NCBI RefSeq assembly: GCF_054482525.1
Contig: NZ_CM137006.1
Length of the DNA: 64,000 nucleotides
Reading direction: 5' to 3' (one strand)
In this document: in pieces, positions 11,001-14,000 of the stretch
Position numbering within the stretch: position 1 is the first letter of the stretch
Layout: the number at the start of each line of letters is the position of its first letter
Made by a program: the position numbers

Positions 11001-14000
11001 AAAAACGGTTTCCGCACTTGGCGATGACCAGACCAACGCACATTATCAAGAGATGGTTAACGCCGAACTGAGAGCACAAAATGATGCGAATGCGCGTACT
11101 GCAGCAGAACAAAAACAAAAAATAGATACTCTGGCGACTAACCAGGCAACACAACAGCATATCGATAGTGTGCAGTACGGGGAACAAATTCAGCGTCTGG
11201 CGCAAGACTCAACACAAACGCATGAACAAATTGACAGCCTGACACAAGACGTAACCCAAACGCATCAGCAGTTAAGCAACACGCAAAAACGAGTAGCGGA
11301 TAATAGCCAGCAGATTACTACGCTCAATAACCATTTCAGTTCGCTGAAAAACGAAGTTGAGGACAACCGTAAAGAAGCCAATGCGGGAACTGCATCAGCC
11401 ATCGCTATCGCCTCACAACCACAGGTGAAAGCCGGTGACTTTATGATGATGTCAGCGGGAGCGGGAACCTTCAACGGTGAATCTGCGGTGTCTGTCGGAA
11501 CATCTTTTAATGCCGGAACGCATACCGTGATTAAAGCCGGTGTCTCTGCGGATACGCAATCTGATTTCGGCGCGGGTGTCGGCGTGGGATATTCTTTCTA
11601 ATATTCCAATCCTCAATATAAATAAGAGCAAGGAAGCTTGCCGGGTTTCACCTCTTCATTAATTTGTACATTATTTAAGGTTAACAATGATGAATAGCTC
11701 CATTAAATCGTTTTCCCTGCTGGCGGTTATATTACTGGCTGGCTGTAGTTCACCCACTTCCCGCATCGCAGATTGCCAGGCGCAGGGCGTCAGCCATGAC
11801 ACCTGTTATCTCGCAGAACAACAGCGTCAGACGGCTATTTTAAGTGCATCCGAGGCGCAGGCATTTAAAAATGCAGAAGCCGCACAACATGCCCAGGCCG
11901 CTAAAAAATCTATTTATAAAGGATTTGGCATGACCTTTAGAATGAGCAGTAAGAACTTTGCTTATCTCAATGATTCATTATGTGCAATTGATGAAGACAA
12001 TAAAGATGCCACTGTTTATCAGTCAGGTCTTTATAACGTCATTGTTTATCACCACACGGGAAAAGTCGCCTTAATGAAGGAAGGTCAGTTTGTGGGTTAT
12101 TTAAAATGAAGGAGCAAAGGAAAATCCCCCTGACGCATATTATGATTATCGGTGCGTTTATTTTTGCCTTCTTGCAAGTGGTGTTATTAGCCTCCCTGGT
12201 TCACGCTGTGAATGTTAACAACGAAATCCAGGAAGGCTTATTTCAATCGGGGCGCATAATGGTAGAAAGTTTGCAGCATATTCTTTCGGTGCAAACGGGG
12301 ATTAACTGATTTTCACCCCGCCCGATGATGACAGCAGCCGGAGAGATTTTCGATAATCGGGCAGTCGGCGCTGTCATCACCAGGGCAGGCATTCGCCAGC
12401 GCCAGTAGCTGGTCGCGCATGGATTGCAGCTCCTCAATGTGCCGTTCGATCTCCGCTACCTTCTCCAGCGTGCGCCGTTTTACATCGGCGCTGTGACGCT
12501 GTGGGTCGTTAAACAGATTCACCAGTTCGCCGCTCTCTTCCAGGTTAAAGCCCACCTGGCGCGCCTGGCGCAGTAAGGTCAGTTCGTTGAGATGCTGCTG
12601 CGTGTAGGTTCGATAACCATTTTCGCTGCGCATCGGCGGCGTCACCAGCCCCTTCTCTTCATAGAAGCGAATGGCTTTGCTGGTCAGGCCGGTAATTTTT
12701 GCTACATCGCTAATGTTCATCGTTCGCGCAACGCCTCCTGTGCTTTATTAAAGGGTTTCAACAGATAATCCAGCACGCTTTTTTTGCCGGTGCGGATATC
12801 GACCGTCGCCACCATACCGGGGAATATCGGAAACTGCTGTTTATGTTTATTTTCCAGATGGTTGCTGAAAGTGCGAATGTACACCCGATAGTAATAAACA
12901 TCGCGCCGCACTTCATCCTGCACGGTGTCTGGTGATATCACCGCCACTTCTCCCGGCAGGCCGCCGTAGATGGAGTAATCGTAGGCGGTTATTTTCACCA
13001 GCGATTTTTGCCCCGGGTGGATAAACGCCACATCGCGCGGGGAGATTTTTGCCTCAATCAGCAGTTGCTCATCCAGCGGCACGATGGTCATCAGTTTACC
13101 ACCGGGGGCAATGACGCCGCCAACCGTGGTGACGTCAATGTCCTGAACAATGCCTCGCACCGGCGCGGTAAAGTTGAGCCTGGTGAGGGAGTCTTCCCGT
13201 CCACGGATCACCGAACGCTGGGTTTCTACTTCCGCATTGGCTTTCGCTAACTCTTCCCGCGCCTGTACGTAGTATTGCGTGCGCACGTCGCTGAGTTTGT
13301 TTTCCAGTTCATTGGCCTGGCGTTGCAGGCGCAGCACTTCAACGCTGCTCGCCGCCCCCTGTTTTACCAGCGGCTGGGTCATCGCCAGTTCGCGGTTGAC
13401 CAGGCTAATCCCCTGCGTCAGCCCGGTGGTGGCTTTGTTCAGCCCATCGCGGCGAGTGTTGTACAACGCCGTTTCCGACTCGATAAGTTCGGGGAATTTA
13501 TTCAGTTCGTCAGGGAAGACCAGCGGTTTATTACTCACTTCCGCCCGCAGCCGCGCCGAGGTTGCCAGCGCCGCGTACAGCCGCGACATTGCTTCCTGGA
13601 CGTCGGATTCCGTTTTGGTGCGGTTAAGCTGCGCCAGCGGCTGGCCCTGTTCAACAATATCGCCAACCTTGACGTCGAGATGATACAGAATTCCGCCTTC
13701 CAGCGACTGCACCACCTGTTCGCGCCCGGAAGGTTCTACCGTGCCGCTGCCGGTGGTGACTTCATCAAGCTGGAAGTACCACGCCCAGCCGAGAAAACAG
13801 AGCAGCATCACAGAGGTAACGCGTACCGCCAGCGCCGAACGCGGCAGGCGGGGTTCAGTCAGGCCACGGTTGTATTGCAGTTGTCCGTTCATGCGGCAGA
13901 CCCCTTATTCTTCTCCTGCAACACTACCCGTCGCGTCGTGGGTTCGCCCTGTTCACGCAAAATGGCCTCTTTCGCGCCATCCATCACAATCCGCCCCTGA

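Follow-up and report, generated by a model that had tools for sequence, protein, structure and literature searches.

A lipoprotein encoded beside a head-less trimeric autotransporter adhesin of Escherichia coli is a credible new kind of adhesin partner

Two helper proteins specific for trimeric autotransporters are known, SadB and TpgA, and a 2026 survey spanning the bacterial tree named no others. The gene for SadB lies upstream of sadA; the protein is retained at the inner membrane by an Asp at position +2 and combines a trimeric coiled coil of nine heptads with a MATH-like domain; structures of SadB and of its paralogue YajI are reported to have been solved (YajI entry 2JWY). TpgA is encoded downstream of ataA, pairs a BamE-like domain with an OmpA_C domain, and binds the adhesin anchor in an A3B3 complex; 91% of the members of its cluster are located downstream of an adhesin gene. 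Here we describe a 140-residue lipoprotein encoded directly downstream of a trimeric autotransporter gene on an E. coli chromosome, within a stretch of 64,000 nucleotides (NCBI RefSeq assembly GCF_054482525.1, contig NZ_CM137006.1; hereafter the window), which is a credible new kind of trimeric-autotransporter partner. The survey set out from genomes whose adhesins have a head domain as well as an anchor, and it depended on domains already known, which may explain why this partner went unreported.

The original prediction, made from the sequence of the window, was that the lipoprotein and a 67-residue membrane protein encoded after it are co-expressed with the adhesin and may form an accessory pair for its export, on the paradigm of SadB. 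The observations behind it hold, and its interpretation is borne out in part. The lipoprotein gene does start 85 bp past the adhesin stop codon (11601 to 11687), and the ATG of the 67-residue gene (12106–12108) does overlap the lipoprotein stop codon (12107–12109) as ATGA. Judged by their sequences, both small open reading frames (ORFs) are real genes under purifying selection, since the ratio of non-synonymous to synonymous polymorphism (pN/pS) is low and the Prokaryotic Genome Annotation Pipeline (PGAP) annotates both; among six Escherichia alleles, with a synonymous divergence of up to 0.3, pN/pS is 0.03–0.11 for the lipoprotein gene and 0–0.39 for the 67-residue ORF.

The upstream gene is a true trimeric autotransporter gene. 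Its ORF opens at 10168 with a likely start at the ATG at 10186, from which a signal peptide can be read (MKTVKLSLLAVVVATAVSPSAFA, followed by GD), and residues 418–477, counted from the opening of the ORF, match Pfam YadA_anchor at 45.2 bits (cutoff 22.7; E = 1e-11). The best solved relatives in a PDB search are the anchors of AtaA (9VNJ) and Hia. Pfam detected the anchor alone and no YadA-like head domain, and the passenger consists of coiled-coil or low-complexity sequence, so that the adhesin is head-less and stalk-only; the stalk contains short in-frame repeats. Annotations of this gene differ between strains: the PGAP coding sequence in PCN033 begins at the equivalent of window position 10306 (431 residues), cutting off the signal peptide, whereas the O157:H7 annotation includes it. 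Passenger length also varies within E. coli (338, 349 and 471 residues).

The lipoprotein has a signal peptide ending in a lipobox of the pattern [LVI][ASTVI][GAS]C, here LLAG followed by Cys20, and its mature N-terminus reads C-S-S, with Ser at +2. Cys20 is invariant in alignment A2, the residue at +2 in aligned family members is S, T, Q, V, K or Y and never Asp, and the O157 orthologue is named ‘lipoprotein’ by PGAP. The N-module that follows carries the motif RMxxCExxGxSxDxCYxAEQNRQ and then a long Ala/Gln-rich helix closing with QHAQAAKK; a disulfide is predicted between Cys30 and Cys40. An AlphaFold2 model built on a 32-sequence alignment has a mean predicted local distance difference test score (pLDDT) of 82.8, with residues 81–140 averaging 91–98, and places helices at 23–32 and 37–71 ahead of eight strands. 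Relatives numbered 106 in a search of all cluster representatives and 53 in a word-index search, and nearly all of those that could be placed are Enterobacterales. The protein is a member of an unnamed Enterobacterales family, which on the model joins a disulfide-bearing helical N-module to a small 8-stranded beta-barrel. Named families were considered and rejected, as Pfam, NCBIfam, PHROGs and PADLOC gave sub-threshold matches alone, driven by the signal peptide (TraV, Lpp-like alanine zipper, XAC1346); large proteins matching the C-terminal domain (P0122, P0135 and P0136) had unrelated or spurious domain content and were uninformative.

The two modules also occur apart. The N-module alone forms a lipoprotein of 63–69 residues in Aeromonas (L039, L047, L049), in Pseudomonas (L050, L055, L060) and in L046 and other Buttiauxella loci; these stand-alone proteins share 60–70% identity with the E. 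coli N-module even in other orders; none adjoins an adhesin, and none has a family assignment. Two genes take the place of one in Citrobacter and Franconibacter, the first for an N-module lipoprotein of 80–91 residues and the second for a C-domain protein of 116–187 residues that has its own signal peptide. The split pair directly follows an adhesin gene in three loci (L068 6971–7587, L080 1282–1898 and L076 6998–7715), and no adhesin was found at five others (L064, L071, L075, L082 and L083).

In sequence and in predicted fold the lipoprotein is unrelated to SadB and TpgA. No chain named SadB or YajI was matched at E ≤10 when all PDB chains were searched with phmmer and with a 32-sequence profile, and the lack of similarity to SadB noted at the outset held in sequence and structure comparisons alike. 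That the protein might be a divergent member of the SadB/YajI family is suggested by a superficially similar layout (lipid anchor, alpha-helical segment, C-terminal beta domain) and by genomic linkage to an enterobacterial trimeric autotransporter; some of its homologues, like YajI, occur without an adhesin. This idea is already effectively refuted and is given almost no weight here. The lipoprotein has Ser at the position where Asp holds SadB in the inner membrane, it lacks the C-terminal MATH/Ig-like beta-sandwich (~125 residues) on a long trimeric coiled coil, nine heptads long in SadB, and its gene is downstream of the adhesin gene where SadB is encoded upstream of sadA; the SadB paradigm of the original prediction needs revision on the first and last of these points. 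What remains in common is a non-essential enterobacterial lipoprotein, linked to a trimeric autotransporter, in which a helical segment precedes a beta domain.

By gene order TpgA is the closer analogue. Like TpgA, the lipoprotein is encoded directly downstream of the adhesin gene, probably in one operon, would be periplasmic and act at the outer membrane, and would form part of a widely conserved adhesin–helper cassette. It has neither the alpha-alpha-beta-beta-beta BamE-like N-domain nor the OmpA_C domain of TpgA: no Pfam match to the SmpA/OmlA (BamE-like) domain was found in 32 family members, no OmpA_C-like peptidoglycan-binding domain was found in the lipoprotein with Pfam or NCBIfam, and the modelled fold, a helical hairpin and a barrel, is not BamE-like. 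Sequence searches of the PDB gave no trimeric-autotransporter helper chain, even though the AtaA–TpgA complex (9VNJ) was among the entries searched. TpgA, moreover, forms a complex with its anchor; that the lipoprotein does so is a proposal. A further parallel, by description, is the FAD-I/RadD operon of Fusobacterium, in which a type V secretion adhesin is accompanied by one small lipoprotein and a pair of uncharacterised small proteins. RadD belongs to the monomeric type Va autotransporters, and the organisms and the layout differ.

The association of the lipoprotein with adhesins is retained well outside E. coli. Scanning a single genome of each species with a 12-sequence alignment gave 80 loci; ORFs were called in these, in three further loci and in the window, and were searched with the anchor hidden Markov model (HMM) and with domain HMMs. 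Counts refer to 38 full-length family genes, with both N-module and C-domain, in 37 loci. Twenty-five of the 38 lie no more than 330 bp from a YadA-anchor gene on the same strand, with the lipoprotein gene downstream in all 25 pairs, and two have an adhesin gene within 2.5 kb. The anchor HMM supports 23 of the 25 adjacent adhesins; the remaining two (L006 and L007), whose anchors are divergent, were identified from BLAST clustering and from a C-terminus resembling a beta-signal. Adjacent pairs are present in Escherichia, Enterobacter, Phytobacter, Rahnella (ten species), Yersinia, Hafnia, Ewingella and uncultured Enterobacterales, and among linked pairs the identity of the lipoprotein to the window protein falls as low as 35–50%. 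In about 1.1 Mb of fetched DNA, all 35 anchor-HMM matches were upstream of a family member and on its strand, 33 of them within 563 bp and two at 1.9–2.3 kb, so that there was no background. The flanking genes differ between module loci (qmcA–ybbJ/cueR, thiMD and others), and Rahnella woolbedingensis carries a tandem adhesin–lipoprotein–adhesin–lipoprotein arrangement with anchors 95% identical and C-domains 100% identical. Because same-strand adjacency recurs in different chromosomal contexts, the pair has been duplicated and the linkage has survived the splitting of the lipoprotein gene, a functional link between lipoprotein and adhesin is rather likely.

Across genera the linked adhesins are short (~230–620 residues) and head-less; their anchors are conserved while the passenger varies in length from about 230 to 620 residues. 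Collagen-like GKDG/KGD repeat tracts are found in the passengers of several of them (L024 6113–6814, L048 5408–6754 and L002 4960–5841). A 290-residue protein that recurs downstream in four loci was set aside, being absent from Escherichia, as was the literature on Yersinia YadE, which is unrelated.

Several observations weigh against a dedicated partner. Eleven of the 38 full-length homologues have no adhesin gene or adhesin remnant within 7 kb; apart from low-complexity repeats like those of a passenger at a single Pantoea locus, a search of the adhesin-less loci for remnants gave no match. Together with the lone N-module lipoproteins of Aeromonas, Pseudomonas and Buttiauxella, these stand-alone homologues indicate that the family has some adhesin-independent function. 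The phylogenies of the two partners are also partly discordant, which is evidence against a tightly co-evolving interface: the Hafnia anchor is 78% identical to that of the window and its C-domain 45%, while the Pseudocitrobacter values run the other way, at 46% for the anchor and 78% for the C-domain. Over 27 pairs, anchor identity and C-domain identity do co-vary (r = 0.60, Mantel p ≤2e-4), as shared ancestry alone would also bring about. Neither in sequence nor in fold, further, does the lipoprotein resemble a periplasmic chaperone or trimeric-autotransporter helper known so far, and the one published deletion of its gene (z0638), in enterohaemorrhagic E. coli (EHEC), had no effect on motility (Yang et al. 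2018).

The main alternative, on the whole somewhat unlikely, is that the lipoprotein is an independent envelope protein that shares an islet and a promoter with the adhesin but has no role in its biogenesis; it could be a binder or inhibitor of the small-barrel type, like MliC/PliC or Neisseria ACP. It was compared with the MliC/PliC lysozyme inhibitors and with small 8-stranded barrel lipoproteins (ACP and the C-terminal domain of NHBA). Neither a Pfam match to MliC nor the conserved motifs of that family were found in it; identities to these proteins are 9–12%, Foldseek gave no significant match, and none of them is linked to a trimeric autotransporter.

A biogenesis role is proposed for the lipoprotein on the precedent of SadB and TpgA, both of which are encoded beside trimeric autotransporter genes. 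Under the +2 rule of lipoprotein sorting in E. coli, a Ser where Asp would hold the protein back predicts that the Lol pathway sorts it to the outer membrane. The protein would be exported and lipidated at Cys20, and Lol would place it in the inner leaflet of the outer membrane, with its disulfide-clamped helical hairpin and small 8-stranded barrel facing the periplasm. There it would bind the membrane anchor of the adhesin, or a periplasmic assembly intermediate, and help to assemble or stabilise the short head-less adhesin in the outer membrane. Such a protein would resemble TpgA in the logic of its gene order and outer membrane location, and SadB in its lipid anchor and its helix followed by a beta domain, with an unrelated fold. 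By analogy with these two, we tentatively suggest that the lipoprotein is a dedicated, non-essential partner of the adhesin that aids its assembly or stabilisation. The stronger proposal, that the family represents a third class of partner dedicated to trimeric autotransporters, unlike the other two in structure, which docks from the outer membrane through its hairpin and barrel on a clade of short head-less adhesins and is needed for their correct assembly or stability, is possible but doubtful.

A lipoprotein so closely linked to an adhesin might instead be exposed at the surface and act with it as a co-adhesin, a shield or a ligand-binding tip. We regard this as improbable: among the conserved neighbours we noticed neither a Slam-type (DUF560) translocator nor another flippase, we know of no general route for surface lipoproteins of this kind in E. 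coli, and in a trimeric autotransporter the barrel pore is occupied by the three helices of the adhesin itself.

Expression of the two genes together, as originally suggested, is plausible, because the 85-bp spacer holds no promoter-like site on the + strand and no hairpin with a T-run, and has a ribosome binding site for the lipoprotein that is conserved in five Escherichia alleles. The sole terminator-like prediction in the spacer is on the minus strand, and a terminator or structured RNA there was rejected, as folding was no better than that of shuffled sequence (z = 0.56). On this sequence evidence, the adhesin, lipoprotein and 67-residue protein genes are probably transcribed as one unit, and the ATGA overlap points to translational coupling of the last to the lipoprotein gene.

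The 67-residue protein has K2, R5 and K6 near its N-terminus, one hydrophobic helix at about residues 12–34 (maximum Kyte–Doolittle value 2.65) and a 33-residue tail, for which reasons an N-in/C-out topology is predicted. Its homologues are restricted to Escherichia/Shigella and Pseudocitrobacter, the latter with the same ATGA overlap. In other genera the third slot is filled by unrelated small proteins, always ATGA-coupled to the lipoprotein gene, and the membrane protein is therefore a lineage-specific addition, not a conserved component of the module. The suggested accessory pair is accordingly not a conserved one. In Rahnella, Serratia and one metagenome-assembled genome the third slot holds an apparently soluble protein of 70–80 residues (MKKHHTDQFKHLPPEQQ...), which matches no family; in Pantoea it holds an unrelated 69-residue protein with a C-terminal membrane helix. 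The slot lies about 410 bp past the lipoprotein start in L012, L014–L016, L020–L023, L025, L028 and L031, and L030 is a further locus with such a protein.

The genes lie in a small islet between ybbJ and cueR, with a GC content of 38–48%, AT-richer than its flanks, which is O-island 29 (OI-29) of EHEC O157:H7; their coordinates are collected in Table 1.

Table 1. Features of the adhesin–lipoprotein islet and its borders, in window coordinates
Feature	Position	Strand	Basis or remark
ybbJ	7378–7836		left border of islet
IS3-family element	7935–9292	−	between ybbJ and islet; rve integrase ORF and helix-turn-helix transposase ORF
Divergent 120-residue protein, z0640 homologue	9457–9819	−	ORF; predicted XRE/Cro-type helix-turn-helix
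Trimeric autotransporter adhesin gene	10186–11601	+	YadA_anchor; start codon and signal peptide read from sequence
85-bp intergenic spacer	11602–11686	+	lipoprotein ribosome binding site TAAGG 7–11 nt before ATG; small hairpin GCAAG-GAAG-CTTGC without T-run
Lipoprotein gene, 140 residues	11687–12109	+	ORF, as originally predicted
Signal peptide and lipobox to lipidated Cys20	11687–11746	+	MMNSSIKSFSLLAVILLAG, then C20
N-module, residues 21–74	11747–11908	+	helical hairpin, invariant Cys30 and Cys40; alignments A1 and A2
C-terminal domain, residues 75–140 and stop	11909–12109	+	small 8-stranded beta-barrel (predicted)
67-residue single-pass inner-membrane protein (predicted)	12106–12309	+	ATGA-coupled; hydropathy; PGAP hypothetical protein
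cueR	12313–12720	−	right border of islet

The divergent 120-residue protein encoded upstream of the adhesin is, on its model, likely to be a local regulator. Its homologues occupy the same divergent position in 15–18 loci, pN/pS is 0.05–0.10, and the AlphaFold2 model exceeds a pLDDT of 90 over the N-terminal ~65 residues. The best Foldseek matches are HigA2, P2 C, C.Esp1396I and the lambda repressor DNA-binding domains, at probabilities reaching 0.99 but with E ≥0.3, and there is a weak Pfam match to the helix-turn-helix of the MqsA antitoxin.

Deletions in OI-29 were described by Yang et al. (2018), and the genes concerned were assigned by mapping their deletion primers onto an O157:H7 genome. 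By this mapping z0638 is the lipoprotein, z0640 is the 120-residue helix-turn-helix-like protein, and z0639, published as ‘transcriptional activator GmrA’, is exactly the coding sequence with the signal peptide and YadA anchor; its counterpart in strain Sakai is listed as ‘Saa-like protein’. The three EDL933 genes of that paper (z0638–z0640) do not include the 67-residue gene. Loss of the whole island left adherence to HeLa and Caco-2 cells unaltered, the islet was found to affect flagellar gene expression in EHEC, and z0639 by itself complemented the island deletion. The sole available phenotype of the adhesin gene therefore does not need the lipoprotein, and the corrected assignment affects how the published ‘GmrA’ motility phenotype is to be read.

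The effect on flagellar genes raises a further possibility, namely that the lipoprotein, the inner-membrane mini-protein and the helix-turn-helix protein form an envelope signalling relay, like those of RcsF or NlpE, through which the state of the adhesin would be passed on to gene expression. The architecture would fit, since an outer-membrane lipoprotein, an inner-membrane mini-protein and a cytoplasmic helix-turn-helix protein would stand together in one islet. Such a relay is nevertheless highly improbable: the single deletions of z0638 and z0640 were without a motility phenotype (Yang et al. 2018), the inner-membrane part lacks conservation, with an apparently soluble protein in its place in Rahnella and Serratia, and the helix-turn-helix gene is missing at many loci that retain the adhesin–lipoprotein pair.

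Within E. coli the islet genes travel together as a block, as is shown by their near-equal counts among 5426 complete genomes: the adhesin anchor is present in 1411, the lipoprotein with the membrane protein in 1413 and the regulator in 1413, so that the lipoprotein gene block is found in about 26%. Bases 9900–12800 of the window are 100% identical to PCN033 and two other genomes. The IS3-family element is not at the matching position in PCN033, O157:H7 86-24, ST1193 or E166. At the other border, the stop codons of the 67-residue gene and the convergent cueR are 3 nt apart (12309–12313), leaving no room for terminators, and cueR overlaps a downstream HlyD-family type I secretion gene by 4 nt (12717–12720), which suggests that it is co-transcribed with the secretion genes for a giant SiiEA-like adhesin. 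Some E. coli have an extra frameshifted gene of about 230 residues between the 67-residue gene and cueR (L087 3749–4428 and L088 3715–4426); it was not present in the window or in O157:H7. Phage or plasmid cargo was considered and rejected, with no phage match and few plasmid matches, these in chromosome-like contexts without an adhesin.

The OI-29 paper proposes four separate gains of the island. Versions of the module adjoin qmcA–ybbJ in distant genera (L028 Serratia silvae, L038 Symbiopectobacterium and L076 Franconibacter), and for this reason the position may instead be ancestral in Enterobacterales and have been lost in most E. coli. The Serratia version also adjoins cueR and copA; it retains the regulator, the lipoprotein and the small protein but has no adhesin.

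If the lipoprotein is indeed a partner of the adhesin, a third unrelated lipoprotein family beside a clade of head-less adhesins would widen the view of assisted type Vc secretion. The system is small and tractable, with an adhesin of 340–470 residues and a lipoprotein of 140, and E. coli K-12, which lacks the island, offers a clean background. About a quarter of complete E. coli genomes, many from pathogens, carry the OI-29 islet.

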